Source of the DNA: an uncultured Micavibrio sp.
Lineage (GTDB): Bacteria; Pseudomonadota; Alphaproteobacteria; Micavibrionales; UBA2020
Reading direction: 5' to 3'
NCBI GenBank assembly: GCA_964551435.1
Contig: CAZKBS010000001.1
Span: forward strand, 79,565 to 143,564
Length of the DNA: 64,000 nt
Below are positions 47,776 to 64,000 of this stretch, piece by piece. How positions within the stretch are numbered: position 1 is the stretch's first letter; every line of letters starts with the position of its first letter. The notes beneath the pieces are model-generated. The model ran no database searches and was not told the origin of the DNA. It saw only the letters and a list, made by a program, of their open reading frames with translations. Position numbers and translations under genes: made by a program.

Positions 47776-47795
47776 TTGAATAAGGAGACCACGTC

Positions 47796-48850: not shown

Positions 48851-50488
48851 CTATTTCGGATTGATGTTGAAGATTTTGGGGCGGCGGCGGTTGATGTTGG
48901 CAGCATCCTGCGTTTGTTCGGGCGGTTTGGGCTGCGGCGCGGTTTTCATCAAATAATGACGGTCAGACCATGTCGCGCCTTGCAGGGTTTTGAAGCCGAC
49001 CAGTTTCGGCGCGCCCTTGGTTTCAGGGTCGACCGAGCGGCAACCGTCGCGCGTGACGCGAATGGCATCGCCGTTGTCGGCCTTAATCACGCGCTGGCCC
49101 ATTTTTTCCATCGCCTCGGCGCAGGATTCGCGCAGCTTGCTGTCGCCGTGGATGGGCATGACGGTTTTGGGCTTGGCCATTTTCGCCATTTCAATCAGCT
49201 CTGGCAGGCGGGCATGCGCCTGCGCATACAGCGGCGCATCGGCGCGGGTCAAAACCTTGATACCCTTGTTTTTCAGCGTCGCCATCAGGCGCGCATGCTG
49301 GCCTTCCTGACCCGGAATCACGGGTGCGCAAAACAAAACGATATCGCGCTGCGGGTCCAGCGTCAGACCCGGATGATGCCCGTCTGCCGCGCGCGTCAGC
49401 GCCGCGCCGGGCGAACCTTGTGCGCCAGTCACGATGACCACGCTGTCGCGCGGGCGGCTTTCTTCAAAATCGCGGATGGAGCGCGGGGTCGAAAGCACGC
49501 GCACATCGACTTTTTCGCCAATCGAATCCGAGAGCGTCAAACCCGTTTGCTGAAGCGCGGAGAGCGATTGTTCATGCGACCAGCCCGATACCCAGACCGT
49601 GCGCCCCTTTTCCGCCGCAACCTTGGCGACAGAGGCGACGTTTTCCTCAAACCCGCTCATGACCGCAATCACGAAACGCTTGCCCGGATATTTTTCCATG
49701 AGATCGCGCAGCGCATCGCGCACGTCTTCTTCGGTTGTCGGCACCACGTCGCGGTCGGCGCCGGTGGAATCGAGCAAAAGAAGGTCCACCGGTTTATTGA
49801 CGATACGCTGGAATTGCTGTTCATCAAACGCAGGACCCCAAACCACCGACTGGTCGAGCTTGAAGTCGCCGGGGTTGAGCATGTTGCCTTCGGGTGTTTC
49901 GATGAAAAATCCGACCGATTGCGGCGTCGAGTGGCTGACCCAGAAAGCGGACACTTTCACGGGGCCTTCCTGCACAGGCTTGCCGGGGGCGATGGTGATA
50001 ATTTGCGGCCATTCCGACGGATCAAGGCCGGCGTTGGACAGTTCCTGTTCCAGCCGCTTCGCCGTGTAGGGCGTGGCGTAGATTTTCGGCAGCTCATACC
50101 CCATCAACAGCAGCATCGGCAGCGCATTCATGTGGTCGGAGTGGTTATGCGTCAAAAAAATCGCATCCACCGGCTGCCCCGGCTGGTGGCTGGCATCGTC
50201 GCGGCGACGGAAATGGTTGGCGTAATCGGGGATGACCGTATCGCAATCGGTGAGCGCTGGGTCTTCGAGCTGGCGCGCGTCCGACGACATCACCCCCGCG
50301 TCGAACAGAATATTCCATGTGCGTTTATCGCCATTGGCATCGGTTTCGCTATAGCTACAAAGCCCGCTGTTCATGCCGATGCGGTGTTTGTTATTCCCGC
50401 CCAGAATATGCCAGTGCAGCGACCTGCCCGAATGTCCGTCGCGATCGCCGTTATCGCCAGATGGGGGCACGGGGGGCAGAGACGTCAT
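48851..50488 (-). CDS. MBL-fold / beta-CASP RNA-metabolising hydrolase (RNase J-like)
   Basis: FLTHNHSDH (HxHxDH) and a late PIHGD motif. The 545-aa size fits RNase J. The N-terminus is divergent. Confidence 0.6.
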   Translation of the reverse strand: MTSLPPVPPSGDNGDRDGHSGRSLHWHILGGNNKHRIGMNSGLCSYSETDANGDKRTWNILFDAGVMSSDARQLEDPALTDCDTVIPDYANHFRRRDDASHQPGQPVDAIFLTHNHSDHMNALPMLLLMGYELPKIYATPYTAKRLEQELSNAGLDPSEWPQIITIAPGKPVQEGPVKVSAFWVSHSTPQSVGFFIETPEGNMLNPGDFKLDQSVVWGPAFDEQQFQRIVNKPVDLLLLDSTGADRDVVPTTEEDVRDALRDLMEKYPGKRFVIAVMSGFEENVASVAKVAAEKGRTVWVSGWSHEQSLSALQQTGLTLSDSIGEKVDVRVLSTPRSIRDFEESRPRDSVVIVTGAQGSPGAALTRAADGHHPGLTLDPQRDIVLFCAPVIPGQEGQHARLMATLKNKGIKVLTRADAPLYAQAHARLPELIEMAKMAKPKTVMPIHGDSKLRESCAEAMEKMGQRVIKADNGDAIRVTRDGCRSVDPETKGAPKLVGFKTLQGATWSDRHYLMKTAPQPKPPEQTQDAANINRRRPKIFNINPK

Positions 50489-50493
50489 GGCGC

Positions 50494-50832
50494 TTAACTC
50501 CCGCTATCCGATTTTTTACCGCCACTGCCGCGCAGCGCGGCCCCGTCCGCATAACAAACAGGAGAAGACATCTCGACCGCTTCGGCCGCGGCATCCGCAA
50601 ACGCGGCGCTGCGCGGCGTCATGCCGCAGCGCGCATCGGCAACACGCATCCAGGTCCAGAGAATTTTATCGAGAATGCGTGCATCCGGCGGAATCGCCGC
50701 ATCACAAAAGCCGGGGAGCGCCACAATCAGGCGGCGCAGGGATTCGCCATCGAGCGCGAGCCTGTCCTGTTCGGGATAGGCCGCCCAGAGGGCTTCTGCA
50801 AGACGATCCTGTTCTGACCAGGACAGTTGCAT
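50494..50832 (-). CDS. IscX (YfhJ)-like small acidic protein with a C-terminal extension
   Basis: LSWSEQDRLAEALWAAYPEQDRLALDGESLRRLIVALPGFCD...ILDKILWTWM parallels E. coli IscX ([21 protein letters not shown]...ILEAILLVWL). Confidence 0.5.
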   Translation of the reverse strand: MQLSWSEQDRLAEALWAAYPEQDRLALDGESLRRLIVALPGFCDAAIPPDARILDKILWTWMRVADARCGMTPRSAAFADAAAEAVEMSSPVCYADGAALRGSGGKKSDSGS

Positions 50833-50977: not shown

Positions 50978-51011
50978 AAAAAACCCCGCACACAAAGGAG
51001 CGGGGGTTTTT
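50978..51011 (-). terminator. Rho-independent terminator ending the four-paralog operon
   Basis: Minus strand reads aaaaaCCCCCGC-tcctttgtgt-GCGGGGtttttt, about 20 nt after the stop at 51031. Confidence 0.8.
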
Positions 51012-51030: not shown

Positions 51031-52359
51031 TTACGGGGCGCGGTTGGTCGGCAGGTCTTTGCTGTCGAATTTCGGAATATTGATGTCCATATCGGAAGCA
51101 AAAGCCGCCGTTTCCATGAACACCATTTCTTCCATACGTTTGTAGAGTTCGTTCATCTGCTGCAGGCGCACGGCGTTGACCGTCCCCTGTTCACGGATGA
51201 CCTGTTCGGGGCTTTCGATCAGGCGCACGATATATTGCGGGTTATGGAAGCGGTCTTTGCTGACCGCATGCACGATTTCCGCATAGCTGGCGTCGGTCGA
51301 GGCATCCGCCGCAGGCAAACCCGAAGCCGTACGCATTTCCTGCGTATTGACCTTGCTGCCCCCGACACGCTGGCCAATCATCAGCGCCACGGCGTTATAG
51401 ATGGTGTTCTGACGTGCCGTCAGAGCGCGGCGGCGCAGCAGCGTTTGCTGACCCGCAGGCGACTGCACCACAGATTCCGGCACCGGCGGCAGGGATTTGG
51501 GCGCCAGCATGTATTTCATGACAGCATCGACGACCAACCGGTTATCGGGCGATGTCGCATCAATCGTCTGACGGTCACCCCACAGCAAGGCAGGCAAGTC
51601 GACATGACGACCGGCCAAATCACCCGGCGCGCCATCACAACCCTGACCGCCTTTGTCGGGGTCGCAGAAGCGGGTGATATATTCCTGCCAGCGTTCGTTC
51701 TGGTCGGCAGCCGTGCTGCGGCCTGCTGCAGTACCTTCCGCGTTCATCCGGCGGGGCTGGGATTGTTTTGCCAGGGCGCGGGCTGTCGCGCGCGCCATGC
51801 GCGCGGCCTTGCCAACGCCCGAACCGCCGGGGGGCGGACTGCTCGGATTGGCGTTACCCGTGGCGATCGCGTCGAACTGGCAGGCGATTTCGCTCGGCTG
51901 GTAACGGCGGAGCGCTTCAACCTGACGTCTTTGGATATCCTGCATATATTCGTTCTGGTTTTGCGCATCCATCATGGAGCCGTAAACACGGCTCTGGTCG
52001 ATTTGCGAGGCGTGCAACTGGCTGGTCATTTGCTTCAACGCCGGTTCGAAATGTTCACGCCACCACACCGACAGACCTTCGCGGATATTCTGGTCGAACT
52101 CCTCGAGGCGGGTGATGACTTCGTTTTTCGCGGTATTGGTGATTTTATCTTCGATAAAATTTTCTTCCTGTTCGATGAAATCGTTCAGGTCGTCTGCAAT
52201 ATCCTGCGCCATCTGGTTGAACGTCGAGGTCGCGGTGAAAGAGTTTTCGCACTGCGCGCGCGCAATGCCCGGCGCAAACAGCACCGGCAGGGCCAGCGCC
52301 AACGCCAACGCGGGAATAACCCCGACAGCCTTGCGTTTACTGGTTCGTCGGCAATTCAT
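51031..52359 (-). CDS. Secreted Cys-containing protein, paralog 4 of 4 (unassigned family; IcmX-like?)
   Basis: Signal peptide ...PGIARA|QCE. Shares blocks with the three upstream genes: VWWREHFEPALKQMTSQL, RFCDPDKGGQGC, STDASYAEIVHAV. Overlaps the upstream gene by 23 nt. Confidence 0.7.
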   Translation of the reverse strand: MNCRRTSKRKAVGVIPALALALALPVLFAPGIARAQCENSFTATSTFNQMAQDIADDLNDFIEQEENFIEDKITNTAKNEVITRLEEFDQNIREGLSVWWREHFEPALKQMTSQLHASQIDQSRVYGSMMDAQNQNEYMQDIQRRQVEALRRYQPSEIACQFDAIATGNANPSSPPPGGSGVGKAARMARATARALAKQSQPRRMNAEGTAAGRSTAADQNERWQEYITRFCDPDKGGQGCDGAPGDLAGRHVDLPALLWGDRQTIDATSPDNRLVVDAVMKYMLAPKSLPPVPESVVQSPAGQQTLLRRRALTARQNTIYNAVALMIGQRVGGSKVNTQEMRTASGLPAADASTDASYAEIVHAVSKDRFHNPQYIVRLIESPEQVIREQGTVNAVRLQQMNELYKRMEEMVFMETAAFASDMDINIPKFDSKDLPTNRAP

Positions 52360-53641
52360 TGCGACCCCCTCCTCTCAGAGACGTGGCTTTTCTATCCAGA
52401 ATATTACCCGCTTCGATAGCCTGTGCGGTGGCGATCTTTTCGGCCTTTTCAAACATGCGGTACAGCAGCATCAGGTTATAGGCCTGAAGGAATACTTCTT
52501 TTTGCGAAACACTGGTCGCACCATCGGTCAGGCCGACGTAGTATCCCGGATCCCAAAGCTGTTCCATGATCGCCTGGCGGATTTCACGCTCCGACGGATT
52601 GGCGGAGGCGTCGTTGATACCGACACGCTGGCGAATTTCGCGGACCTGATCCGATCCATCGGCATTCGTCGGCGCGCGTTCGGCAACGATAGAGAAACCG
52701 AGCGCGTTCACCGCGTCCATCTGCGCGAGATAGCTGCGGTTATGCTGGCGCTGCTCTTTACCGGCGGCACCGTTGAGAACGTTGTTTTCGATGGTCTCCG
52801 GCGGTTCGAAACCCGTGATGTTGTAAATCAGTTCATTGACGGCAATCGCGATATCGGGGTTGGTCATGTCGAGCGTTTCGCGGCCAAACAGCGTCACGCT
52901 GGGCATCAGGTGTGCGTTCGGGGTTGTCGCCGAGCTGCCGCCGCAGGCCGTGTTGCCGCCGTTGGCCAGATGGTCGCAGAAACGGTTGCGGTATTCTTCG
53001 AAACGGGCACGCACCACACCGCCGGGACCGTTCGCCGCGGGCGTACCGGCATTGTTGTTGGCAAGCTGGCTGGTCGTTTTCGACAGCATGTTCGTGGCCG
53101 CGCGCGTCGTGCCGCTGGCTTTGGTCAGCGGAACGGCAACCGTATCGAAACGGCAGCCTTCATCCGTCGGGCGGAAGTTTTGGCGGGCTTCAAATTCGCG
53201 GCGTTGGAAACCGCGCGCGGTTTCGGTCAGGTTACTGCTGTCAAACAGGCTGGACATCTGGCGGGCCTGATCGGTGACGCCGGCGTTCAGCTGGGTGGTC
53301 ATGGCCTTCAGCGCCTCTTCCCAGTCGCGCCAGAACTGGCGCATGCGCTGGTTGAGGGCGGTTTCCATCGCTTCAAGCGAGGCAATCAGCGCCGCGCTCG
53401 ACGCTGTGGTGGTGGCGGTGTAAAGCGCGCTCAGGGTTGTTTGCATCGCGGTAATCGCCGCCGCCTGCGCCGGAATAACCGTACCTGTCGCAATGCCCAT
53501 GGTAGAACCCGGGGCTTCGCACTGCGCGAAGGCGTCTGTGGGTTGCGCAACCGCGATTGTCGCCGCTATCGCCGCCAAAGCCCATACCGGCAGGGCTTTC
53601 CTGCGCTGTGCCTCTTGGTGGTGCTGGGGTTTCGATTTCAT
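52337..53641 (-). CDS. Secreted Cys-containing protein, paralog 3 of 4
   Basis: Signal peptide ...TDAFA|QCE. Blocks QFWRDWEEALKAMTTQL, RFCDHLANGGNTAC, SANPSEREIRQAI. gaaaggg RBS. Confidence 0.7.
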   Translation of the reverse strand: MKSKPQHHQEAQRRKALPVWALAAIAATIAVAQPTDAFAQCEAPGSTMGIATGTVIPAQAAAITAMQTTLSALYTATTTASSAALIASLEAMETALNQRMRQFWRDWEEALKAMTTQLNAGVTDQARQMSSLFDSSNLTETARGFQRREFEARQNFRPTDEGCRFDTVAVPLTKASGTTRAATNMLSKTTSQLANNNAGTPAANGPGGVVRARFEEYRNRFCDHLANGGNTACGGSSATTPNAHLMPSVTLFGRETLDMTNPDIAIAVNELIYNITGFEPPETIENNVLNGAAGKEQRQHNRSYLAQMDAVNALGFSIVAERAPTNADGSDQVREIRQRVGINDASANPSEREIRQAIMEQLWDPGYYVGLTDGATSVSQKEVFLQAYNLMLLYRMFEKAEKIATAQAIEAGNILDRKATSLRGGGRNELPTNQ

Positions 53642-53655
53642 GAAAACACCCTTTC

Positions 53656-55113
53656 CTATTGGTTCGTATTGCGCGTCAGGGCAAGACTGGGCAGCTGTAC
53701 GTCATCTGCCATCATGCCGACCTGAACCGCCAGCGCCAGCGCCTGACGTTCCAGCAGATCGTGATAGTCGCGCAGCAGCATCAGATAGAAGGTGCTGATC
53801 GCGAGTTTTTCCATTTCCACACCGGCACGTTCCATTTGCAGGCCGTTGGCGAATTTACCGCTGTTGAAACGGTCAACCGTCAGCGCGTTCAGCACTTCGC
53901 GGTAGCTGGGGTTTTCAGAAATGTCAGAGATGGGAATACCCGCTTCCTGACGCAATTCCCGAATCCACTGGCCAAGCTGCGAGCCGGGCATACGCTGGCT
54001 GAAAACATATTGCGGTACGGCGCGGATGGCGTTGTACTTCGCCAGATAGTCGCGGCGTTTGATGATGGTTTCGATACCTGCCGGCCCGCCCATGGCTGCC
54101 TCCGGTATCGGATCGACCGCAGGGCTGCCCACAAGGTTTTCCATGTTTTCACGAATGGCGCGTTCGTAAACCTGACCCGTCGTCATGGGGTTGCCATCGG
54201 GACCGATAACGGTGGTTGCGGTTGCGTCATCGACGTTGATGGTCAGCTTGTTGTAGACGAATTTGGTGATTTCGGTATCGGCGTTATAAAACTCCGGCGG
54301 GGCCGGGGTGGTACCGCAGACGTTGCCGCCACCATTCGCATTCGGGTCGCAGAAGGCCGTTTCATAGGCGCTGGTGCGATATCGCAGATAGGCGCCCTGA
54401 CCGTCCGCACCCTCTTCACCCATGACGTTGGCGCCGGTGTTGCTGGCTTTGCGCTGCCATGCACCACGCGTCGCGCGAGCGAAAGTTTTGGCGCGGCCCG
54501 CACCGCCCGTCAGACCGGCAGGCGGGCACACGTTGTCACGCACGACCCGCGCCGTTTGGGTTTCTGAGCGCATAACGGCGCTGTTGGTCTGGGTTTCATG
54601 CTCCGAGTCCATCGACGCCTGATAGCTTTTGTTCAGGTCGCTGTTGGCCGTGTTCATCTGCACGGTCATGGAGCGCAGGCCCGGGCTCAGGTTGTAGTAC
54701 CACATAGTGGACCACCAATCGATCATCTTCTTCTCGATGTCGTTTACCTTTTCGAGCAGGTTCTGCACCATACCGTCAACGTGCTGTGCCAGCCAGTTTT
54801 CAAGGAATACGGAGGTTGCGACCAGCTGGGTGTAGAAAGCATTGTAGATCGCGTTACGGACAAGGCTGGCAGTACCGGAGACTTCGCAAGGCGTAACGCA
54901 GCCTTTGCAGCAGGGACAAAGACCGCCCGCCACCGTTACCGTAGAGGCCGTTACCTGCGCCTGACAGGCGTTGTTGTAAGAGGTCATCGAGTTATAGCCG
55001 GAGGCAAAGCCAAGCGCTACCACCACAACCATCGCCAGCGACGCGGCATATGCCTTTTTCGGCAAGATCCGTTTTGCAAGGCTGCTCAGTCGTTCCTTGA
55101 TCAATGTCATCAT
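53656..55113 (-). CDS. Membrane-anchored or secreted Cys-rich protein, paralog 2 of 4
   Basis: N-terminal TM, then a Cys cluster (GLCPCCKGCVTPC). Blocks DWWSTMWYYNLSPGLRSMTVQM, AFCDPNANGGGNVC, SENPSYREVLNAL. ATGA overlap with the upstream gene. Confidence 0.7.
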   Translation of the reverse strand: MMTLIKERLSSLAKRILPKKAYAASLAMVVVVALGFASGYNSMTSYNNACQAQVTASTVTVAGGLCPCCKGCVTPCEVSGTASLVRNAIYNAFYTQLVATSVFLENWLAQHVDGMVQNLLEKVNDIEKKMIDWWSTMWYYNLSPGLRSMTVQMNTANSDLNKSYQASMDSEHETQTNSAVMRSETQTARVVRDNVCPPAGLTGGAGRAKTFARATRGAWQRKASNTGANVMGEEGADGQGAYLRYRTSAYETAFCDPNANGGGNVCGTTPAPPEFYNADTEITKFVYNKLTINVDDATATTVIGPDGNPMTTGQVYERAIRENMENLVGSPAVDPIPEAAMGGPAGIETIIKRRDYLAKYNAIRAVPQYVFSQRMPGSQLGQWIRELRQEAGIPISDISENPSYREVLNALTVDRFNSGKFANGLQMERAGVEMEKLAISTFYLMLLRDYHDLLERQALALAVQVGMMADDVQLPSLALTRNTNQ

Positions 55114-56420
55114 TGGTTCACCGGCTTGTCGTTAAGCTTGTCTTCGAATTTGGAATGTTCGCGTACGTTTTTACCGACGCGCGCCGCGAGCAGCAGCGCA
55201 TAGCGGTCAAGAAGGTCAATCTGGTCGGACATCTGCATCGCCTGCAGCGCCTGTTGCATCACGAGCTCGCGGCTGTTGTTTTCCGGCTCGTCCACCTGGT
55301 TGACGGTGTTCTGGCCGCTGCGGTAACGCTCGACCATCAGCGCGTCGAGCACTTCGTTATGGCTGGGGTTATCGCTGGAATTGGTGAGACCGGCGGCGTT
55401 ACGGATCGGCTCGATGAATTCGGCCATATCGCTACCGGGCACCCGGCGCGCGACGATATAATAAACCGCATCGAACAGCACCTGACGGCGCGCCTTGTAC
55501 GATTCGCCCTTGAGGAACATTTCCTGCCCCTCGGCACCGGTCAGCATTTCTTTCGGCACCGGCGCCATCGTGACCGGCTCGACGATGTTGGTCAGCAGAT
55601 CGTCGACAGCTTTGCGTGTCTGCGGGTTGCGCACGTCGATGGTATCTTTTTCAAAAATCTCGCCCGTCACATCAAGGTCGCGGCCAACCATCGGGCCTGC
55701 CGCCGTGCAACCTGCCGCGCCGCCGTTAACAGCGGGATCGCAATAATTGGCGACGTAGTCTTGCCATCTTTCGCCCTGATCGGCGCCCGGGCCCTTAGCG
55801 GCAGCCGTACCCTCACGCGCGCCGGAGCGGTTGAGACGCTCACGCGGCGCCGCGGTGCCATAGGCACGGCGCACGTTGGCCGCACGCGCCATACCGCCTG
55901 CGGTGGTTGCGCCAACGCAAACGGTTTCACTCGGCCGCATCGCGCGGTGTGTTTCGATTTCAGTCCCCATCAGCGCCATGTTGGTGCGGTTGGCGTCCAT
56001 GCTGTCGGTGAATTGACCAATCAGGTTCGACTGATCCGCATCGGCGGTGTTGAGCTGTACGGTCATCGCCTGCATCGCGGGGCGCAGGTTATACAGCCAG
56101 AAAGTATCGAACCAGTCGTTGAGGTTTTTGCCGACTTCGAGAATTTTTGCCGCAACCGCCATATCAAACGCGATCATCGCCTCGGTAAATTTGGCGGTGA
56201 TCATTGTGGTTGCAATGGCGATGCCGGGAATAGTCGTTGTCGTGTTGACAAGGTTGATCGCAACGCCCATACCGCCCGCAGCATACGTGCAAAGACTGCA
56301 CGCGCACTGCGCTTGCGATTTGCAGGATGTCGCCACGTTAAGAGAAAGATAGCCCGCCGCCATAAAGGCGCAGATGCCAACAACGGCGAGGATTTTCTTG
56401 ATCGAGCCGAAAAGAGACAT
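55110..56420 (-). CDS. Membrane-anchored or secreted Cys-rich protein, paralog 1 of 4
   Basis: N-terminal TM, then SCKSQAQCACSLC. Blocks DWFDTFWLYNLRPAMQAMTVQL, NYCDPAVNGGAAGC, SDNPSHNEVLDAL. Start could be ATG 56420 or GTG 56459. Confidence 0.7.
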   Translation of the reverse strand: MSLFGSIKKILAVVGICAFMAAGYLSLNVATSCKSQAQCACSLCTYAAGGMGVAINLVNTTTTIPGIAIATTMITAKFTEAMIAFDMAVAAKILEVGKNLNDWFDTFWLYNLRPAMQAMTVQLNTADADQSNLIGQFTDSMDANRTNMALMGTEIETHRAMRPSETVCVGATTAGGMARAANVRRAYGTAAPRERLNRSGAREGTAAAKGPGADQGERWQDYVANYCDPAVNGGAAGCTAAGPMVGRDLDVTGEIFEKDTIDVRNPQTRKAVDDLLTNIVEPVTMAPVPKEMLTGAEGQEMFLKGESYKARRQVLFDAVYYIVARRVPGSDMAEFIEPIRNAAGLTNSSDNPSHNEVLDALMVERYRSGQNTVNQVDEPENNSRELVMQQALQAMQMSDQIDLLDRYALLLAARVGKNVREHSKFEDKLNDKPVNQ

Positions 56421-56479
56421 ATCCAGAAATACCCCCGTCAGACGCGCCCCGATCGTCACCGGAATCGCTGGTTGACACT

Positions 56480-56540
56480 AAACTTATTCTTTCATTCTAT
56501 CACATTTATCTAAAATGTGATATATTTCAAAAATAAGTTT
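56480..56540. promoter_or_regulatory. Nested inverted repeat in the AT-rich region upstream of the four-paralog operon
   Basis: Outer arms AAACTTATT / AATAAGTTT (56480-88 / 56532-40). Inner arms ATCACATTT-atcta-AAATGTGAT (56499-56521). Confidence 0.5.
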
Positions 56541-56564: not shown

Positions 56565-57890
56565 TTACGGCGTCAGGTCGTAGGATTTGACCACCAGAAC
56601 GCTCGGGCCGTCCTTGCCTTTGTGCAGTTGACCATAGGGCTGGGGGCGGACTTCGGCGAACTGGTCGAGCAGTTTGCCCACGGCTTCATCGTAGGAGCCG
56701 GTGAAGCTGACATCTTTTTTCAGCTTGTAGTCATAATCAATCGACCAGAACAGCTCGACACTTGCAGCATCCGACCAGTTTTTAAGCGTATCGCGCAGGG
56801 TGGCGCCTTTGGCACCGGCCCAGGGCTGCCCCGCCTTTTGCGGAGCAGCGGCCGATTTTTCAGCCGGTGCGGCCAGCGCGGTCGGTGCGGCAACCGTAGC
56901 GGCAGGCGCTGCGGCGGCGGCTTCGGGCGCGGGACTCATTTGTTCCATCGGCGGGGGCACGGCCAGATCAGCCGGTGCCTCGCTCACAGGTGCAGCTTTG
57001 TTGGCCGCCGACGGCGGCAGCGACGTCACTGCAACCGGGCGCGAACCTGCGGTTTCCGGCGGATAAGACATCACAGGCTCTTTTGCTTTCGGTGCGGCCA
57101 TCACGGCAACAGAGTCGCTTTGCGTCCCTGCGGTGCGGCTTTCCGATGCCGGACGGGTGCGGCGAATGGTCACCGGTTCTGCCGTAGCGGCAACGACCGG
57201 AGTTTCGCTAACCGCTGCGGGTGCAGCGGCAGCCGTTTCTGCGGGCGCGCTGGTCAGCGGCGTCGGTGCGGTATCGGCGCTGTCGGACGGCATGACGGAC
57301 ATGCCTTCAGGTGCCGCAGGCATCGGCGCATCAGACGCAGCGAAGCCCACAACAACAACGTTGCCTTGTAGTTGATAGCTGAGGCCCTGCGGCGCGAGCA
57401 TGTCGGTAATCACTTGCTGCCAGGGTTTGCCGCCTTCCCACGAAACCATCACGCCGGGGTTCACGCCGGAGGCGAAAGAAAACTGATGACCCGCAGGAGC
57501 GACTTGCTGAAGCGCAATCACCAGCGGCAGATCGCGGCCGAAGCCAGCGACAACATCCGTCGGTGCCGCAGCGGCAGCAGGCGCGGGCGTTGCTGGCGCG
57601 AAAGGCGCCAGCGCGGGACTGACGGGTTCTGTTTCAACCGGCATGGTCGGTGCAGCGGCGGCAACAGGCGCGGACGCCGGCGCAGCAGCTTTGCCATCCC
57701 AGCCGACAACAGGCTCTAGACCCGACATGTCGCCTTCAACGGGCGCGGGTGCTGCCTGACGCACAGGCGGTTCGATCGGACCGCGCCATTCGAAGCCGGC
57801 ATGTGCCGGAGAACTGAAGCAAAGAAGAGCAACACCCGAAACCATGAGGGCGCGGCCAAAGAACTGCTTGAACGAAGGCGTGTGTGTCAT
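56565..57890 (-). CDS. Secreted protein with an STN-like domain, long Pro/Ala linkers and a C-terminal TcpQ-like domain
   Basis: Signal peptide ...SSPAHA|G. LPLVIALQQVAPAGHQFSFASGVNPGVMVSWEGGKPWQQVITDMLAPQGLSYQLQGNVVVV resembles a secretin/TonB short N-terminal (STN) domain. The C-terminus (LRDTLKNWSDAASVELFWSIDYDYKLKKDVSFTGSYDEAVGKLLDQF) resembles TcpQ/PilL-type domains. Confidence 0.6.
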   Translation of the reverse strand: MTHTPSFKQFFGRALMVSGVALLCFSSPAHAGFEWRGPIEPPVRQAAPAPVEGDMSGLEPVVGWDGKAAAPASAPVAAAAPTMPVETEPVSPALAPFAPATPAPAAAAAPTDVVAGFGRDLPLVIALQQVAPAGHQFSFASGVNPGVMVSWEGGKPWQQVITDMLAPQGLSYQLQGNVVVVGFAASDAPMPAAPEGMSVMPSDSADTAPTPLTSAPAETAAAAPAAVSETPVVAATAEPVTIRRTRPASESRTAGTQSDSVAVMAAPKAKEPVMSYPPETAGSRPVAVTSLPPSAANKAAPVSEAPADLAVPPPMEQMSPAPEAAAAAPAATVAAPTALAAPAEKSAAAPQKAGQPWAGAKGATLRDTLKNWSDAASVELFWSIDYDYKLKKDVSFTGSYDEAVGKLLDQFAEVRPQPYGQLHKGKDGPSVLVVKSYDLTP

Positions 57891-58016: not shown

Positions 58017-58316
58017 TCAGGAGCCGGTATCCTGAAGCTTGCGGCGGCGCGTCCAGATCCAGCCCGGACGCTTGGTGCCGACCAGCCAGACGCGCAGCGA
58101 ACGCAGCGCGGCCGGAAAGGACAAACCCTTGCGCTCGAGCAGATAAAAAATAAACAGCATGCCGACAAGAAGGCAGATCGTCCAGATACGGAAATGCAGC
58201 AGCACCAGCGCGACAAAAAGACCCGCACGCGCATCGAAACTGAAGAACCGTACGGTCTTCATCGTATTACGCCAGTGCCACGAGCGGCCTTCGTCTTCGT
58301 CTTTATCTGCTGCCAT
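58017..58316 (-). CDS. icmT: Type IVB secretion protein IcmT (TraK-like)
   Basis: 99 aa. WHWRNTMKTVRFFSFDARAGLFVALVLLHFRIWTI...LERKGLSF fits the IcmT/TraK pattern (WRDS..(F)F..DA...hydrophobic..H.R.WT). Starts 5 nt after dotB. Confidence 0.75.
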   Translation of the reverse strand: MAADKDEDEGRSWHWRNTMKTVRFFSFDARAGLFVALVLLHFRIWTICLLVGMLFIFYLLERKGLSFPAALRSLRVWLVGTKRPGWIWTRRRKLQDTGS

Positions 58317-58321
58317 TTATA

Positions 58322-59515
58322 TTAATTTCCCCCTGCCGTTTCTTCTTCGCCTGCTTCCTGTTTGGTGCCTTGTTGGTAGATCAGGTAGTGGCGCCTTTCG
58401 ATGAGACCGGCTTCGAAAGCGTCTCTGGCCGCTTTTTCCATGGTTTTTCCGTATTTCGGAACCATCTGCATCAGCTCCAGCGGCCATTGGTCGAAGGTCA
58501 GGCTGAGCAAACGCTCGCGGATTTCTTCGGTAAAGGGCATGTATTCGCGCAGCGCCACGCGGCCGCCGCCGATTTTCGGCACCAGCGTTTGCGTGACCAC
58601 CATGCGGATGGTTTCCATCAGGGCGAAAGCACGTTCGGTACGCTCCGACGGCTCGAAGGTCGAGACCATGCGTCGGATTGTCGCCGCCACACCCGTCGTG
58701 TGCACCGTAGCGTAAACGGTGTGACCCGTCTGCCCCGCTTCGATGGCGGCAGAAATGGTTTCGCGGTCGCGGGCCTCACCCACCAGAATGATTTCGGGCT
58801 TGCGGCGCAGTGCGTTACGCACGCCCGCGGCGAAGGACGGCAGGTGGCGCGGAATTTCCGACTGCGCAACCAGCGAGCGTTTCGCCTGAATGGTATCGTA
58901 GGTAAACTCGATCGGCGCCTCGTAGGTCAGCATCTTGCCGCAGCCGTGCAGACTTTCGATGAGCATGCGGTTACCCGCCGCCAGCAGGGTGGATTTGCCC
59001 GAACCCGTCGGCCCCGTGACCAGCACAAGACCCTGACGCGGCTTCCAGTTGGCGATGATTTCCGGCTCGATGTTCAGCTGTTTCATTGTCGGCGGCGCGG
59101 AGGGCAACGTACGCATCGTGACCTGTACGCCGTCGCGGCCATCGGCCAGAATAGCCGTCATGTTCACACGGAAACGCGTGCGCGTGAAACGGTCGGTCAT
59201 GACCTCGTAGGACAAGTCGATGTCGGCGCCGCCCGCGAGAATAGCGAGGGCTTCTGTACCGTAGAGTTTGACGAGAACCGCCGCCATGTCCGCCGCGTCA
59301 AGCGCGCGGTAGGTGGACGGGTAAAGCGTGCCGTAAATCTCGCTGTAAACGGGACGGTTGGACTGGAAGGTGATATCCGACGCGCCCTTCTTCACGCACC
59401 ACAGCAGAAAGGGGTCGATGTGATGCTCCAGAAAACGGTCGGGTTCAGCCGGCCATGTCTCCTTGAGGTCGTCGACGCCTTTCTTGAGGAGACTTACCGG
59501 TCTGCCGGCTTCCAT
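58322..59515 (-). CDS. dotB: Type IVB secretion ATPase DotB (TraJ-like; PilT-superfamily hexameric ATPase)
   Basis: Walker A LVLVTGPTGSGKSTLL. Asp box and His box (GHTVYATVHT). About 397 aa. Sits between dotC and icmT. Confidence 0.85.
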   Translation of the reverse strand: MEAGRPVSLLKKGVDDLKETWPAEPDRFLEHHIDPFLLWCVKKGASDITFQSNRPVYSEIYGTLYPSTYRALDAADMAAVLVKLYGTEALAILAGGADIDLSYEVMTDRFTRTRFRVNMTAILADGRDGVQVTMRTLPSAPPTMKQLNIEPEIIANWKPRQGLVLVTGPTGSGKSTLLAAGNRMLIESLHGCGKMLTYEAPIEFTYDTIQAKRSLVAQSEIPRHLPSFAAGVRNALRRKPEIILVGEARDRETISAAIEAGQTGHTVYATVHTTGVAATIRRMVSTFEPSERTERAFALMETIRMVVTQTLVPKIGGGRVALREYMPFTEEIRERLLSLTFDQWPLELMQMVPKYGKTMEKAARDAFEAGLIERRHYLIYQQGTKQEAGEEETAGGN

Positions 59516-60672
59516 AGATCTGCACCTGTCAGGAATTGCGAGGGGCCGGTGATGCGCAGGGCACGGTCGCCGACACGCATCTCGTTGCCGCCGCCCGTCA
59601 CGCCGCGATCTTCATGCAGCGCATAGGGTTGGGAAATTTTACCTTCGGCCAGCAACAGGCGATAACGCACCATGCCATTATAATCGGCGGTCAGCTGGTT
59701 GAGACCGGTTTCAAAAGCCTCTTCGGCCTGCTGGAAACCTGCATCCCAACCGTCCTTCACCCAGCCGCTCCATTCGCCCTGCTCTTTGGCGTTTTTCGGC
59801 CAGAGGATGCGCGGCGGCGGCGTAATTTCGGATTCATAGTTCATGACCAGATACTGGCGCCAGTTACGCGCCGTCGGCACGATTTTCGCCTGCTGGTTGA
59901 TTTTGAGAACCTGATCGGCAACGGCAGCTTCAACGCCGCCCTCGGTAATCACCATCGCGCCAAGGGACTCTTTCACGATCGGCGGCTCGATCAGCAGACC
60001 CGAAGGCGCTTTCACGAGCAGCGGACGGAAATCGAATACCTTGTCGAGTACACGCTCGTAACCGCCCAGACGCTCGAGGATCTGGTAGTTGCGCTTGGCG
60101 AGACCGCCGCGCGCGCCGTAAGACAGGGCCGCTTCGCGCTGCGCGTCGCGGCGCATGTCGAGGGCGATTTCTTTCGAAATCAGATCATCGACGATTTCGG
60201 GCGTCGTGCCGTGGGTTTTGTGAACCTGCTGGAGGCTGATCAGCTCCGGCGGCGGTTTGACGTTGTCGAGCGGATTGATTTCAGGCTTCTGCGGCTGGAT
60301 GCCGAAGAGATCGATGCTCGATTTCGCTTTATCGGCCAGCTTGCCGGCTTTATAGGCCGGGCTATCGGGATCGAGAATATCGCCCGTGTAGTTGCCGCCA
60401 CCAAAACCTGCATCCGCCTGAATGCCGGGAACGCCCTGCATGGGCGCCTGACCGTAGGGCGTGCTCGGCACTTGCTGCATCGGGAAGGGCGATGCGCCTG
60501 CTTTTGCAGCGGCGGCTTGCTGGTCAGCCAGCGCCTGCGCGAGTGCATCGGGCGTCAGTTGCTGTTGCTGCGCCTGCGCGCCTGCCGAAAAAGCCGTCAG
60601 CAGCGCTGCGGCGCAAAGACCGAGAAACAGGCGGGACAAGGCCAGACGATTAACCACCGGAAACGGGCGCAT
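59494..60672 (-). CDS. dotC: Type IVB secretion outer-membrane-complex protein DotC (TraI-like)
   Basis: Signal peptide. Core AALSYGARGGLAKRNYQILERL...LDKVFDFRPLLV...LIEPPIVKE...ARNWRQYL matches my recollection of the DotC/TraI family. N-terminal Gln/Ala/Pro-rich extension. Confidence 0.75.
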   Translation of the reverse strand: MRPFPVVNRLALSRLFLGLCAAALLTAFSAGAQAQQQQLTPDALAQALADQQAAAAKAGASPFPMQQVPSTPYGQAPMQGVPGIQADAGFGGGNYTGDILDPDSPAYKAGKLADKAKSSIDLFGIQPQKPEINPLDNVKPPPELISLQQVHKTHGTTPEIVDDLISKEIALDMRRDAQREAALSYGARGGLAKRNYQILERLGGYERVLDKVFDFRPLLVKAPSGLLIEPPIVKESLGAMVITEGGVEAAVADQVLKINQQAKIVPTARNWRQYLVMNYESEITPPPRILWPKNAKEQGEWSGWVKDGWDAGFQQAEEAFETGLNQLTADYNGMVRYRLLLAEGKISQPYALHEDRGVTGGGNEMRVGDRALRITGPSQFLTGADLWKPADR

Positions 60673-61138
60673 AGTTCAACTCCACAACACGTTGATCGGG
60701 ATCGACGACGATATTAGCACGCAGTCCGGCCTGCAGGCCAAGATCGCGCAGAACCTCGACAACCGATTTCTGCTTGGCCTGTACGTTGACGACAAGCGGT
60801 GCAGACGGCTGATCGCCGTTGACCTGGAATTCATAACCCGCACGGTCGGCGAGACGTTTGGCGATGGGCTCGATCGGGCCGGCCCAGTCAACCGAAACGG
60901 TACGGCGCAGTTCCTGCGGTGCATACGGCGCGGCTTGCACCGATACGCCGGGATTGCGCGCCTGCTCGACCGATGCGAGGGTTTGCAGTGCGGAGGAAGC
61001 TTTGTCGACAGCCGCGGCAAGACGCAGGCTGACCGGGTCGGGAGTAGCGACCATCTGATGATCGATCTTCGCCGCCGGTGCGCAGGCCGAAAGAGCGAGC
61101 AGAGCCGCGGCACCGATAAAAGAAATTTTTTTGTTCAT
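60650..61138 (-). CDS. dotD: Type IVB secretion lipoprotein DotD (TraH-like)
   Basis: MNKKISFIGAAALLALSAC lipobox. 162 aa. C-terminal N0-like domain (VSVDWAGPIEPIAKRLADRAGYEFQVNGDQPSAPLVVNV...VVELNY). Confidence 0.8.
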   Translation of the reverse strand: MNKKISFIGAAALLALSACAPAAKIDHQMVATPDPVSLRLAAAVDKASSALQTLASVEQARNPGVSVQAAPYAPQELRRTVSVDWAGPIEPIAKRLADRAGYEFQVNGDQPSAPLVVNVQAKQKSVVEVLRDLGLQAGLRANIVVDPDQRVVELNYAPVSGG

Positions 61139-61204
61139 GAGAGTTGTTCCATCACTGCCCGAAAAAAGGGAAACACATTTGCGTGGACTGATTTTAACCA
61201 TTTT

Positions 61205-61232
61205 CAGTCGCAATGCAAACGGCATGCGACTG
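61205..61232. other. Stable hairpin in the transglycosylase-dotD intergenic region
   Basis: CAGTCGCAATGC-aaacg-GCATGCGACTG (one bulged base). Flanked by T/A runs. Confidence 0.4.
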
Positions 61233-61290: not shown

Positions 61291-61755
61291 TCATCCGGGC
61301 TTGCGGCGGGCCTGCTGGCGCTGCGCGGCGGCGACCAGATCGTCAGGGCTACGCACCAGGCGGTAACGCTGCATGGCGTCCATGACCTTGCTGCGGTATT
61401 TGCTGCCCAGATGCGGGGTCGCGGAATGATAATAGGCGATGCCCTGATAGAGGCTGCCCGTCTGGTTAATCTTTTTGCGTAAAATCCAGGTGCCGACGCC
61501 GATATTGACGCAGGCGTCATCGCGCACAAGACGGTGTGCGGTTTCGCGCGGCACGTTCCAATGGCGCGACAATTCGGGAATCCAGATCGTATTGATCTGC
61601 ATCGGGCCGAGGTCATACGTATTGTTAGTGTTTTTGGACGCCATGCCGATGCGCCCGCCCTCGACATGCAAAATGCCGAGAATCAGCGCTGGCGGCACGG
61701 AATAGGTCTGTGCCGCGGTAAAAATACAAACTGCCAGCGCCTGCGCCGTCATCAT
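61291..61755 (-). CDS. Lytic transglycosylase (SLT domain; VirB1/specialised T4SS-type)
   Basis: ILGILHVEGGRIG...YDLGPMQINTIW...NIGVGTWIL...YYHS. Catalytic Glu in HVEGG. Confidence 0.75.
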   Translation of the reverse strand: MMTAQALAVCIFTAAQTYSVPPALILGILHVEGGRIGMASKNTNNTYDLGPMQINTIWIPELSRHWNVPRETAHRLVRDDACVNIGVGTWILRKKINQTGSLYQGIAYYHSATPHLGSKYRSKVMDAMQRYRLVRSPDDLVAAAQRQQARRKPG

Positions 61756-61821: not shown

Positions 61822-62706
61822 TCAATTACGGGCCAGTTCCGATTCGAGCAGCATCATATTCGACGGTTTGCCTGCAATCACCGTCAGCTTGCCGTCATCC
61901 GGACGGCGATAAATCGTAAAGGGCGTTTTGGCCAGACCAAAAGTCTTCACCATTCGCGTATTGGCGTCAATCGCAGCCAGCGAGCCATCGACAGCTTTTT
62001 CCTTTGCCAGTGCATTTTGCTTGCCCGCAATATAATCGGACCATGCCGCCCCCGGATCTGCGCTCGACAGCAGCGCCGCCCCGCCTTCGCGGTTGGCCTG
62101 CGCCTGACCGAAGGGCACAAGGCGCACTTGCAAACGGCCCGCTTTCACCGCCGGCTCCAGCGCTTTCCAGTATTCCTTGCAGTGGTCGCAGTTCACGTTC
62201 ATGAACATATAAAGATAAGGCGCATCCTGTTTGCCGGCCTGCACCCAGGCGGCTTTTTTCTCGACCGTGGCATAGAAGCGTTCGGATTTGGAAACATTGC
62301 TGGACGGCTCTTCCGCGCCCGGAATGGCCTCTTGCGAGCCTTCCATTTTGGCCTTGAGCGCGTGCAGCTGGCTCATGGTTTCGACTTCGCCTTGCGGATT
62401 GACGAGATTGCCCAGCACAAGGCCGCCCTGCGGCGTCGTGTAGGCGGTGCGCGGCGGGATGTCCTTGCGCGTCAGAAGCCAGCCATCGAGGCCATAGGCA
62501 TGACCGATGAATTCGACATCGCCGCCTTCGCTTTTGAATTTTTCCAGCTCCGGATGGCGCAGTTCATTGCCCGGTGCGGCCGTGGCGGGTACAGGCTGCT
62601 GCGCGGTCGGTGCCTTTTGCGCGGCAGCCGTCAGCGGCAACGCAAGTGCGGCGCATACAACAGCGGCGGCAACCGTTTTTTTGAAACCGTGAGCGTTCTT
62701 CATCAT
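61822..62706 (-). CDS. Periplasmic thiol:disulfide interchange protein (DsbC/DsbG-like; TrbB-like)
   Basis: Start at ATGATG 62706 with aaggaga RBS. Signal peptide ...LPLTAAA|Q. Has an N-terminal dimerisation-like domain and a thioredoxin fold with NCDHCKEYW (CxxC) and a late TPF cis-Pro-like motif. Confidence 0.75.
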   Translation of the reverse strand: MMKNAHGFKKTVAAAVVCAALALPLTAAAQKAPTAQQPVPATAAPGNELRHPELEKFKSEGGDVEFIGHAYGLDGWLLTRKDIPPRTAYTTPQGGLVLGNLVNPQGEVETMSQLHALKAKMEGSQEAIPGAEEPSSNVSKSERFYATVEKKAAWVQAGKQDAPYLYMFMNVNCDHCKEYWKALEPAVKAGRLQVRLVPFGQAQANREGGAALLSSADPGAAWSDYIAGKQNALAKEKAVDGSLAAIDANTRMVKTFGLAKTPFTIYRRPDDGKLTVIAGKPSNMMLLESELARN

Positions 62707-62973
62707 CCCGTCTTCTCCTTTGCGGAGCCCCTGTTTTTGACGTGGGCAGAGCCGGACGTCCAGCCTGCGCGTCCACAAGAGACTAGAGCATTCACTGCGG
62801 CGCGACAATATTTTCCGCGTTTTGCACGCAGACGGCACAGCCGCGCCCACAAACGGCAGACTGCGCCCTGTCCGAAGCCAAGGCCCATCCTTCATATTAT
62901 AAATGATGATTGGATATTTTCTATAACAGAAAAAGAGTGTCCTAAAGCCAAGATATAGCCCCTGAACCCCTGC

Positions 62974-63420
62974 TTAGAGCCTAAATCCGCCCGGCCCCTT
63001 GCCCTTTCTGACGGGGGCGGCGGGAACGTCGAGCGCATTGCCCGTTTCGGCCACAGGTACGCTCGCGGCGGGATCGGCACTGCGGTCAGGCATGGCGCTC
63101 AGCAGCATGCGGGTGATATCGGCGCGCGCGGTAGCATTTCGGGTATCTTTGTTCAAATCGAAAACCGTGCGGTTACGATGATCCTTGATGAACAGGTCGG
63201 GGCCGTAGCGCAGCAAGAAACGCACGCGGGCGGTCGACTCTTTCCAGACCGCACGCATCAGAACCGTCTGCCCGTCGGCGTTACGCGCATTGATATCGGC
63301 GCCTTTTTTAAAGCATAGCGTCAAACGCTCATCGAAATTCGATTCATCGAGCGCGGTGAACATTTCTTCGTTCACGATGCGCTGTTGTTCGCGGCTCAGG
63401 GCTGTGTTTTTGTCGGTCAT
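62974..63420 (-). CDS. Ankyrin-repeat protein
   Basis: KKGADINARNADGQTVLMRAVWKESTARVRFLLRYGPDLFIKDHRNRTVFD. Tail PVRKGKGPGGFRL. ATGA overlap with the upstream gene. Confidence 0.8.
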   Translation of the reverse strand: MTDKNTALSREQQRIVNEEMFTALDESNFDERLTLCFKKGADINARNADGQTVLMRAVWKESTARVRFLLRYGPDLFIKDHRNRTVFDLNKDTRNATARADITRMLLSAMPDRSADPAASVPVAETGNALDVPAAPVRKGKGPGGFRL

Positions 63421-64000
63421 AGCGTGAAGCCCCCGCCGCCGCGCGGTTTTTGCGGACGGCGCGCGATGACCGCAGCGGGCTTCATCACCTCGATATCCGC
63501 CTGCGCGGATGCTGCGGGCGCGGCGGACGCTTTGCCGGTTGCGGTGTTTTGTGGCTGCTGGTCGGGCATTTTCGCCATCACGGCGTTGATGATGTTTTGG
63601 CGCACATTGCTGTCACGGTCGATGCGGCTGGCCACCGTAATCGCGATATCGCCTTTTTTATCGGCGACCATGGTATCGGCGCCGCGCGACAGCCAGTAAT
63701 TCACCATGCGTTCGGAATAGGTTTTGATGCCGATCATCAGCACCGTATCGCCCGCATCGTTTTTCGCGTCGATACGCGCACCAGCGCTGAGCAGAAAATC
63801 GGTCATGTCGGCGGAAAAGCCACCGCTGTTCTGGCCGACCGTCGCCGCCAGATGCAAAACCGGCCCGAAAACGTTTTGGGATGTGCTGCTGGCCATGCTC
63901 TGGCGCACGGAATAAAAAATGCCGTGGGTCATGCAATTCGGATCCGCCCCCTTTTGCACATACAGCTTCGCCTGCACAACGTTGCGGTTGCGCACGGCTT
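63417..64000 (-). CDS. Ankyrin-repeat protein, 5'-partial (runs off the window end)
   Basis: The frame stays open to nt 64000; the 'M' in the ORF track is an internal GTG. GPVLHLAATVG...LLSAGARIDAKNDAGDTVLMIGI. Tail ARRPQKPRGGGGFTL. Confidence 0.8.
   Translation of the reverse strand, partial: AVRNRNVVQAKLYVQKGADPNCMTHGIFYSVRQSMASSTSQNVFGPVLHLAATVGQNSGGFSADMTDFLLSAGARIDAKNDAGDTVLMIGIKTYSERMVNYWLSRGADTMVADKKGDIAITVASRIDRDSNVRQNIINAVMAKMPDQQPQNTATGKASAAPAASAQADIEVMKPAAVIARRPQKPRGGGGFTL

Follow-up and report, generated by a model that had tools for sequence, protein, structure and literature searches.

Four genes at the distal end of a secretion gene cluster

The 64-kb stretch of DNA analyzed here (the window; contig CAZKBS010000001.1 of an uncultured Micavibrio sp.) carries on its minus strand a cluster of genes related to type IVB secretion systems (T4BSS), and downstream in this cluster lie four consecutive genes whose products, named P1 to P4 by transcription order, are the subject of this study. 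We slightly favor the view that P1-P4 are anciently duplicated members of the TraW/IcmX family which form a four-part cap or stalk of a chromosomal T4BSS. The four genes and the elements at either end of them are as follows (window coordinates are used throughout):

55110..56420, minus strand: P1, predicted TraW/IcmX-like (VirB5-class) paralog, 436 aa from the conserved ATG; modeled with a predicted local distance difference test (pLDDT) score of 87.4
53656..55113, minus strand: P2, predicted TraW/IcmX-like paralog and the largest, 485 aa; N-terminal cysteine cluster CPCCKGCVTPC
52337..53641, minus strand: P3, predicted TraW/IcmX-like paralog, 434 aa; signal peptide ending AFA/QCE (slash, predicted cleavage); four cysteines in the mature protein
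51031..52359, minus strand: P4, predicted TraW/IcmX-like paralog, 442 aa; signal peptide ending ARA/QCE; four cysteines in the mature protein
50978..51011, minus strand: intrinsic terminator closing the P1-P4 unit; hairpin of -17.1 kcal/mol, then a T run
56498..56522, strandless: perfect palindrome TATCACATTT-N5-AAATGTGATA in the spacer between the TcpQ-domain gene and P1, putative operator of P1-P4

A first-pass annotation of this DNA had described four minus-strand open reading frames (ORFs) of 442, 434, 485 and 436-449 aa, joined by a 4-nt ATGA overlap, a 14-nt gap and a 23-nt overlap and closed by a strong terminator, and each of these features is found in the sequence. More specifically, P1 and P2 share the ATGA of CAATGATGA, P2 and P3 are separated by the gap, and P3 and P4 overlap by 23 nt; close spacing is also present in distant orthologous loci. 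The two lengths given for P1 correspond to two starts. From a GTG, the ORF covers 55110-56459 (449 aa), but this codon lacks conservation in an orthologous locus (L011), whereas the ATG at 56420 is conserved and yields 436 aa, the length of most orthologs. The terminator reads AAAAACCCCCGC-N10-GCGGGGTTTTTT at about 50978-51011 and was overlooked by a simple scanner because its loop exceeds 8 nt. As judged from this layout, P1-P4 are one tightly packed transcription unit with its own terminator and a putative palindromic operator.

Two plus-strand ORFs, at 52112-53725 (537 aa, antisense to P2/P3) and 55104-56513 (469 aa, antisense to P1), were considered and rejected as antisense artefacts. Both are arginine-rich (13-14% Arg) in a window of 59% GC that abounds in long antisense ORFs of this kind, and the homologs retrieved match only the minus-strand products, none fitting the plus-strand ORFs, for which no direct search was made. 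Naive longest-ORF calling would choose these antisense ORFs over the real genes.

P1-P4 are divergent paralogs with predicted periplasmic export

All-versus-all BLASTP aligns P1-P4 pairwise at 24-31% identity over 350-445 residues (E 7e-24 to 2e-50), a similarity far above chance, and by this comparison the four are true paralogs, as had been proposed. The shared motif blocks described in the first-pass annotation are likewise visible in an alignment of P1-P4, except that block 1 of P2 is without its P[ST] and that EQLW replaces [DE]R[FY] in P3.

Inspection of the N-termini agrees with the signal peptides or transmembrane segments, the two A/QCE cleavage sites and the two cysteine clusters noted before. 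P3 and P4 have classical signal peptides ending AFA/QCE and ARA/QCE, respectively, and P1 and P2 have longer hydrophobic N-termini ending SQA/QC and CQA/QV, with the cysteine clusters next. By this inspection all four hydrophobic segments end A-x-A/Q, the A-Q being invariant, and P1-P4 are therefore predicted to carry Sec signal peptides and to be exported to the periplasm. The predicted mature proteins contain 6, 8, 4 and 4 cysteines for P1 to P4, all even numbers. Three cysteines of P1 (C181, C240 and C251) are invariant or nearly so family-wide, and each family alignment shows a further invariant cysteine directly after the predicted cleavage site (P1 C52 in one, C57 in another). Because of the even counts, the conserved cysteines and the DsbG-like gene that heads the cluster, disulfide-stabilized periplasmic proteins are suggested.

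Of 150 family representatives, those with an N-terminal extension belong mostly to the P2 class, and the extensions vary in size. One position-2 paralog (P0176, locus L041 10001-12169) reaches 722 aa and carries two N-terminal Big_9/cadherin-like Ig domains; the other extensions in P2-class members have no Pfam match.

Sequence relationship to TraW and IcmX

Scans of P1-P4 against Pfam and NCBIfam matched no family; the silence of Pfam means little, because the copy scanned has no model even for authentic TraW or IcmX. We compared profiles using hhalign. A family profile of 123 sequences aligned with a TraW profile (eight plasmid TraW proteins, 25-75% identical, from IncI, IncK, IncL/M, Pseudomonas, Erwinia, Serratia and Janthinobacterium) with a probability of 97.3% (E 2.3e-11, 286 columns), and in this alignment the family motif RPSE..C pairs with TraW VPDSIC and FCD..GG..C pairs with YCT..GGT..C. 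With a single R64-type TraW in place of the TraW profile, the probability was 66% (E 5.6e-5, 198 columns). Comparison with a profile of 44 Legionellales IcmX gave 24% (E 8.3e-4) over 112 co-linear columns in the C-terminal helices, and the IcmX and TraW profiles aligned with each other at 1.3% (E 0.039, 38 columns). On these profile scores, the P1-P4 family links TraW and IcmX, since it matches each of them better than the two match each other.

Other searches point the same way. When the family profile hidden Markov model (HMM) was run across all fetched loci, IcmX and TraW were among the top non-family ORFs, and two P4 orthologs (P0103 and P0104) have a precomputed weak match to Pfam PF28212 'TraW-like'. 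The description of the family as unassigned thus holds for older libraries and no longer for the newer Pfam, which weakly matches a P4 ortholog. None of P1-P4 matched the NCBIfam equivalog model NF038225 (IcmX_IVB) at E<=1, and a genuine IcmX scores 542 bits on it. Because they fail this model, P1-P4 are not IcmX equivalogs, nor an expansion of IcmX itself; they are closer to TraW than to IcmX. That P1-P4 are divergent homologs within the TraW/IcmX family (VirB5 class) we regard, with high confidence, as very likely. The earlier comparison with IcmX, as a periplasmic T4BSS component present fourfold, was accordingly right in kind, given the TraW homology and the structural match to IcmX described below, but the nearest relative is TraW and the IcmX equivalog model fails.

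The known relatives resemble P1-P4 in several respects. TraW of IncI-type plasmids (R64/ColIb-P9, MPF-I) is also a protein of ~400 aa with a signal peptide and the cysteine blocks P[SD][ES]..C and YC..GG..C; profile homology extends over ~290 residues, and the plasmid order traH-I-J-K equals dotD-C-B-icmT here. In contrast, the plasmids carry a single traW with traV, traX and traY (DotA) around it, whereas the window has four divergent copies without adjacent traX or traY, at a constant position of the chromosome next to iscX and the gene for RNase J, and identity is too low for detection by tblastn or hmmscan. IcmX of the Legionella/Coxiella Dot/Icm system (PDB 9NGY) shares the size class, the signal peptide, the layout of helix, extended domain and helix and the location near dotDCB; it differs in being single-copy, in adjoining icmW, icmV and dotA, and in having two conserved cysteines, compared with four or more here.

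Several further matches were set aside. Profile matches to the long helix of influenza HA2 and to apolipoprotein A-I (E 0.2-1) at P1 residues ~60-125 (window ~56085-56280) are weak and were treated as chance; the HA2 match shares a W.YN motif and is probably a compositional or coiled-coil coincidence. An equation of IcmX 'SYC..DGT..C' with the family 'FCD..GG..C' was also considered; relaxed hhalign instead pairs IcmX TPD.SYC with the family RPSE..C. HMM searches of PDB sequences did not retrieve IcmX with a profile of 4, 43 or 123 sequences, and tblastn of P1 against 72,556 plasmids gave zero matches. The best non-family match of the family HMM (E 0.004) is a 333-aa 'hypothetical protein' of the Xanthobacter dioxanivorans plasmid NZ_CP063364.1 (locus L006 33663-34664). 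It lies in an alphaproteobacterial plasmid T4BSS-like cluster and, on this match, may be another unannotated TraW-like protein.

Structural models weakly match IcmX of the DotA-IcmX protochannel

AlphaFold2 modeling of P1 from 43 sequences gave a pLDDT of 70.8, and modeling from 123 diverse family members gave a pLDDT of 87.4 and a predicted template-modeling score of 0.65. In the latter model, a very long helix (64-174) is followed by another (178-212), then by a mixed middle domain and, at the C-terminus, by one more long helix (392-435). Foldseek searches of the PDB with both models returned one meaningful match, 9ngy_AP1 (E 2.4e-3 and 4.4e-3, probability 1.00; up to 269 columns, template-modeling (TM) score 0.32-0.34), and the next match had an E of 3.6. 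This chain was confirmed to be L. pneumophila IcmX in the DotA-IcmX protochannel. The AlphaFold and Foldseek check proposed in the first-pass annotation therefore singles out IcmX as the only meaningful PDB match, at a weak TM score. IcmX has been described as a signal peptide followed by an N-terminal helix (NH), an extended domain and C-terminal helices (CH), and as VirB5-like and pentameric (10.1101/2025.06.23.660953); the layout of the P1 model agrees with this order of NH, extended domain and CH.

Reviews place TraW and IcmX in the VirB5 class, a stalk pentamer on the VirB6/DotA/TraY platform (PMC12624023; PMC12857230). VirB5, TrwJ and TraC of type IVA systems are thus alike to P1-P4 in functional class, as a pentamer on the VirB6 platform at the pilus tip or stalk, and share a helical-bundle core with them; they differ in being about half the size and in lacking the large extended domain (10.1101/2025.06.23.660953). 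No similarity between P1-P4 and VirB5 proteins was detected by sequence or by Foldseek.

The model also bears on whether P1-P4 are structural parts at all. As exported cargo, they would be toxins, pore-formers or effectors that leave the cell through the system or by some other route. IcmX and DotA are released to the supernatant in a Dot/Icm-dependent manner, and IcmX is needed for pore formation in the host membrane (10.1101/2025.06.23.660953; PMC6761968). The long amphipathic helices of the model could moreover insert into membranes. T4BSS effectors, however, are recruited from the cytoplasm and normally lack Sec signal peptides, which P1-P4 carry, the homology detected is to a structural subunit, and effector repertoires vary between lineages, whereas the P1-P4 set is fixed (see below). 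We therefore hold a role as cargo to be very improbable, and the suggestion in the first-pass annotation of a substrate set is disfavored by the Sec signal peptides together with strict one-to-one orthology.

A fixed fourfold set across Micavibrio-like genomes

We collected related loci by searching with an alignment of P1 orthologs, keeping one genome per species, and obtained 30 loci from metagenome-assembled genomes (MAGs) labeled Micavibrio sp., Rhodospirillaceae UBA8982, 'Bdellovibrionales' or Alphaproteobacteria. In every sufficiently long locus the order is DsbG-SLT-DotD-DotC-DotB-IcmT-TcpQ-P1-P2-P3-P4-IscX-RNaseJ. Each copy has its closest counterpart in the window at the same position, even at 35-50% identity, and no copy loss is found in the lineages examined (long loci). 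Since all four position-wise orthologs recur in the same order, the quadruplication predates the clade. The neighborhood survey proposed in the first-pass annotation thus finds P1-P4 always downstream of dotD-dotC-dotB-icmT in 30 species-level genomes. In the canonical T4BSS loci of Legionella (L005) and IncI (L008), by contrast, only one TraW/IcmX ORF is present.

P1 orthologs are 41-99% identical, come from Alphaproteobacteria MAGs and are all annotated 'hypothetical'. An exhaustive profile search returned 1,512 clusters at 50% identity, 710 of them with E<=1e-30, and the named members of the family are all 'hypothetical' proteins. Ratios of nonsynonymous to synonymous substitution rates (dN/dS; Nei-Gojobori, window against its two nearest relatives) are 0.07-0.13 for each of P1-P4 (P3, 0.11-0.13), compared with 0.09-0.10 for DotC and 0.03 for DotB. 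Every copy is under purifying selection, and P1-P4 evolve faster than DotB or RNase J.

Tandem multiplication of surface or channel subunits is known from the Bartonella Trw VirB5/VirB2 arrays and the four VirB6 paralogs of Ehrlichia/Anaplasma (PMC12857230). Those systems are type IVA; the present one is type IVB, fixed at four and anciently diverged (24-31% identity), whereas copy number varies in the Bartonella Trw arrays, for which antigenic or host-range variation is the interpretation. The VirB5-class subunit of type IV secretion systems (T4SS) and tandem paralogs of surface subunits in type IVA are therefore already known. What is new is a large unannotated TraW/IcmX branch, an ancient fixed fourfold set in type IVB, the host clade and a conserved putative operator.

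By analogy with Bartonella Trw VirB5 (TrwJ) and VirB2, P1-P4 might be alternative, interchangeable caps or adhesins, each forming its own homopentamer for a different prey or host surface. Having several variable copies of VirB5 and VirB2 is an established strategy (PMC12857230), among the Dot/Icm proteins of Legionella the host-exposed IcmX shows the lowest conservation (PMC6761968), and two of our own observations fit as well: the faster evolution of P1-P4 relative to DotB or RNase J, and the variable N-terminal extensions of the P2 class, sometimes with Ig-like domains. Against this, the four copies, their order and their position-wise orthology are invariant even where the proteins fall to 35-50% identity. 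Where diversification drives an array, its copy number usually varies. Purifying selection is moreover similar on all copies, and junctions this tight or overlapping imply that the four are expressed together, not chosen among. Since the full set of four is retained in unchanged order in every lineage, the copies are most likely not interchangeable, and we judge the alternative-cap explanation unlikely.

A conserved palindrome upstream of P1

The 105-bp spacer between the TcpQ-domain gene and P1 is AT-rich and contains the putative operator, which may also be written TCACATTT-N5-AAATGTGA. The palindrome overlaps a promoter-like ATCACA-16-TAGAAT with an upstream TG. Its core, CACATTT-N5-AAATGTG, is found a single time in the 64-kb window and a single time in each of 25 related loci, in every case immediately before P1, and is kept in loci whose proteins are only ~45% identical (e.g., L001 9941-9959, L004 9897-9915 and L023 9889-9907). 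From this pattern P1-P4 look like a separately regulated operon whose putative operator is conserved as deeply as the proteins. A metagenome scan with the palindrome found no co-regulated second region: among 95 stretches, 13 of high GC are the same TcpQ/P1 spacer and the remaining low-GC contigs are unrelated. The half-sites resemble everted CRP/FNR half-sites.

The surrounding gene cluster and the rest of the secretion system

Upstream of P1, the cluster comprises the following genes:

56565..57890, minus strand: 441-aa protein whose signal peptide precedes an STN-like segment, a linker rich in Ala and Pro, and a TcpQ domain at the C-terminus (Pfam TcpQ E 3.6e-12, STN E 1.4e-4)
58017..58316, minus strand: IcmT/TraK homolog (VirB3 class), 99 aa (NCBIfam NF038220 IcmT_TraK E 1.7e-24, above cutoff)
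58322..59515, minus strand: DotB/TraJ ATPase (VirB11 class; TIGR02524 DotB E 2.5e-114)
59494..60672, minus strand: DotC/TraI-family outer-membrane lipoprotein (Pfam T4SS_TraI E 7.6e-70)
60650..61225, minus strand: DotD lipoprotein (VirB7 class; Pfam DotD E 2.6e-37, NCBIfam T4SS_lipo_DotD E 1.1e-33)
61291..61755, minus strand: SLT-family lytic transglycosylase (TrbN/IagB-like)
61822..62895, minus strand: DsbG/DsbC-like thiol:disulfide interchange protein of the periplasm, first gene of the cluster (NCBIfam DsbG E 9.2e-28, short of the cutoff for that family)
62974..63995, minus strand: two small proteins with ankyrin repeats, directly preceding the cluster (Pfam Ank)

Pfam and NCBIfam thus identify DotD, DotC/TraI and DotB, the neighbors that had been named in the first-pass annotation, and DotB is 48% identical to that of Legionella adelaidensis. 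The icmT/traK gene, whose orthologs carry PF28014 IcmT_2, sits between dotB and the TcpQ-domain gene and was absent from the earlier list. With it, the order dotD-dotC-dotB-icmT equals traH-traI-traJ-traK of IncI plasmids. The TcpQ-domain gene always lies between icmT and P1 in the related loci. Its C-terminal domain matches 9u5s_R (114 aa), a chain in the secretin complex of the BFP type IVb pilus (E 1.2e-6); a domain of a type IVb pilus secretin partner is unexpected within a T4BSS cluster. The DsbG-like gene keeps its position in related loci and could encode a dedicated folding factor for the cysteine-containing TraW-like proteins. Runs of two to five ankyrin-repeat genes lie directly upstream in many related genomes (e.g., L004 1-2191; L001 1059-3392), and their products are candidate T4BSS substrates. 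Downstream, the cluster is followed by iscX, the RNase J gene, flgL and flgK (window 48851-50832, minus strand, and 45688-48821, plus strand), in the same order in most related genomes, which indicates a fixed chromosomal site for the T4BSS genes; no mobile-element genes were found among the Pfam-annotated related loci or the downstream window ORFs scanned.

We searched for the core of the machine by tblastn, using as queries all Tra proteins of the IncI set together with DotA, IcmV, IcmW and IcmX of Legionella, and detected only DotD, DotC and DotB, both in the window and in the 10-kb flanks of more than 30 related loci; TraX had no match in either. The placement of P1-P4 at the distal end of a dot/icm cluster therefore holds in so far as DotD, DotC, DotB, IcmT and accessory genes are present, but DotA, DotO, DotG, DotH and DotL were found neither in the window nor within 10 kb in more than 30 related loci. 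The dot/icm genes of L. pneumophila form regions I and II, the latter holding 17-plus genes, and in the Legionella locus dotDCB/icmX stand apart from the large region II. Since Legionella splits its genes in this way, the other T4BSS genes may lie elsewhere here as well.

Alternatively, nothing else may be needed. The cluster could be a self-contained, reduced T4BSS derivative without VirB4, VirD4 or the DotA channel, a new periplasmic or surface structure such as an attachment organelle, in which DotB would serve as the motor and the four VirB5-like proteins would cooperate with it, with DotC/DotD and with the TcpQ/STN protein. Put more broadly, the eleven genes (dsbG-like, slt, dotD, dotC, dotB, icmT, tcpQ-domain and four traW-like) would be the whole apparatus, a streamlined machine building a new heteromeric, envelope-spanning or surface structure by which Micavibrio-like bacteria attach to or feed on other cells, the four VirB5-like proteins being non-redundant. 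Such a view accounts for the failure to find other T4BSS genes in the window or flanks, for the identical gene set in all genomes, for the resemblance of the TcpQ domain to a type IVb pilus secretin partner and for the report of M. aeruginosavorus without a T4SS (PMC3189940). Absence within 10 kb nevertheless proves little, given the split arrangement in Legionella. We know of no function for DotB, IcmT, DotC or DotD outside a complete T4BSS, and the conserved upstream ankyrin-repeat genes look like effectors, which would need a real translocon. In both its narrower and its broader form, we find the reduced-apparatus explanation quite improbable, somewhat more so than that of interchangeable caps.

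Proposed role of the four proteins

We propose that each of P1-P4 would be exported by Sec to the periplasm and oxidized there, plausibly with the help of the DsbG-like protein from the cluster head. The four would then be placed on the central axis of the DotC/DotD outer-membrane complex, atop a platform of the VirB6 class (DotA/TraY), where they would cap and gate the channel and join its extension on contact, as for DotA-IcmX. In Legionella, the IcmX pentamer in that position caps and gates the channel and rearranges at firing (10.1101/2025.06.23.660953). That P1-P4 act as the cap or stalk of a T4BSS appears probable to us. The four copies would further build one heteromeric or layered cap or stalk, in which the size-variable P2 class, sometimes with Ig/cadherin-like domains, would be the distal, target-contacting part; the fixed number, the fixed order and the one-to-one orthology argue for non-redundant roles in one assembly. 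We offer this single assembly tentatively and rate it a little below an even chance.

Several points weigh against this proposal as a whole. First, the machine to be capped is itself only presumed in these genomes: DotA/TraY, DotO/TraU, DotG/TraO, DotH/TraN and the coupling protein (DotL) are found neither in the 64-kb window nor in the 10-kb flanks of more than 30 loci, and the genome paper of the cultured predator Micavibrio aeruginosavorus ARL-13 (2011) reported no T4SS (PMC3189940); our search of the literature for Micavibrio or Micavibrionales together with T4BSS, Dot or Icm found nothing. Second, the connection to IcmX is distant: the structural match is unique but weak (TM score 0.32-0.34, root mean square deviation 7.5), the profile match reaches an hhalign probability of only 24%, and NF038225 gives none. 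Third, the heteromeric or layered assembly is purely what we infer, IcmX and VirB5 form homopentamers, and four paralogs have no simple fit to fivefold symmetry. Finally, with their own putative promoter and operator, P1-P4 could be regulated and used apart from dotDCB.

DotA-IcmX has only recently been shown to be the Dot/Icm gate. A lineage with four conserved, co-expressed and probably non-interchangeable forms of one subunit is a natural experiment on how a VirB5-class cap docks on its platform, opens as a gate and reaches its target, and the position of the P1-P4 family between TraW and IcmX in sequence space helps to unify the VirB5 class of type IVB systems. The locus also points to a chromosomal T4BSS in Micavibrio-like bacteria, with ankyrin-repeat genes as neighbors. 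Eukaryotic proteins are the usual targets of ankyrin repeats, and these genes fit oddly with a lifestyle of purely bacterial prey.

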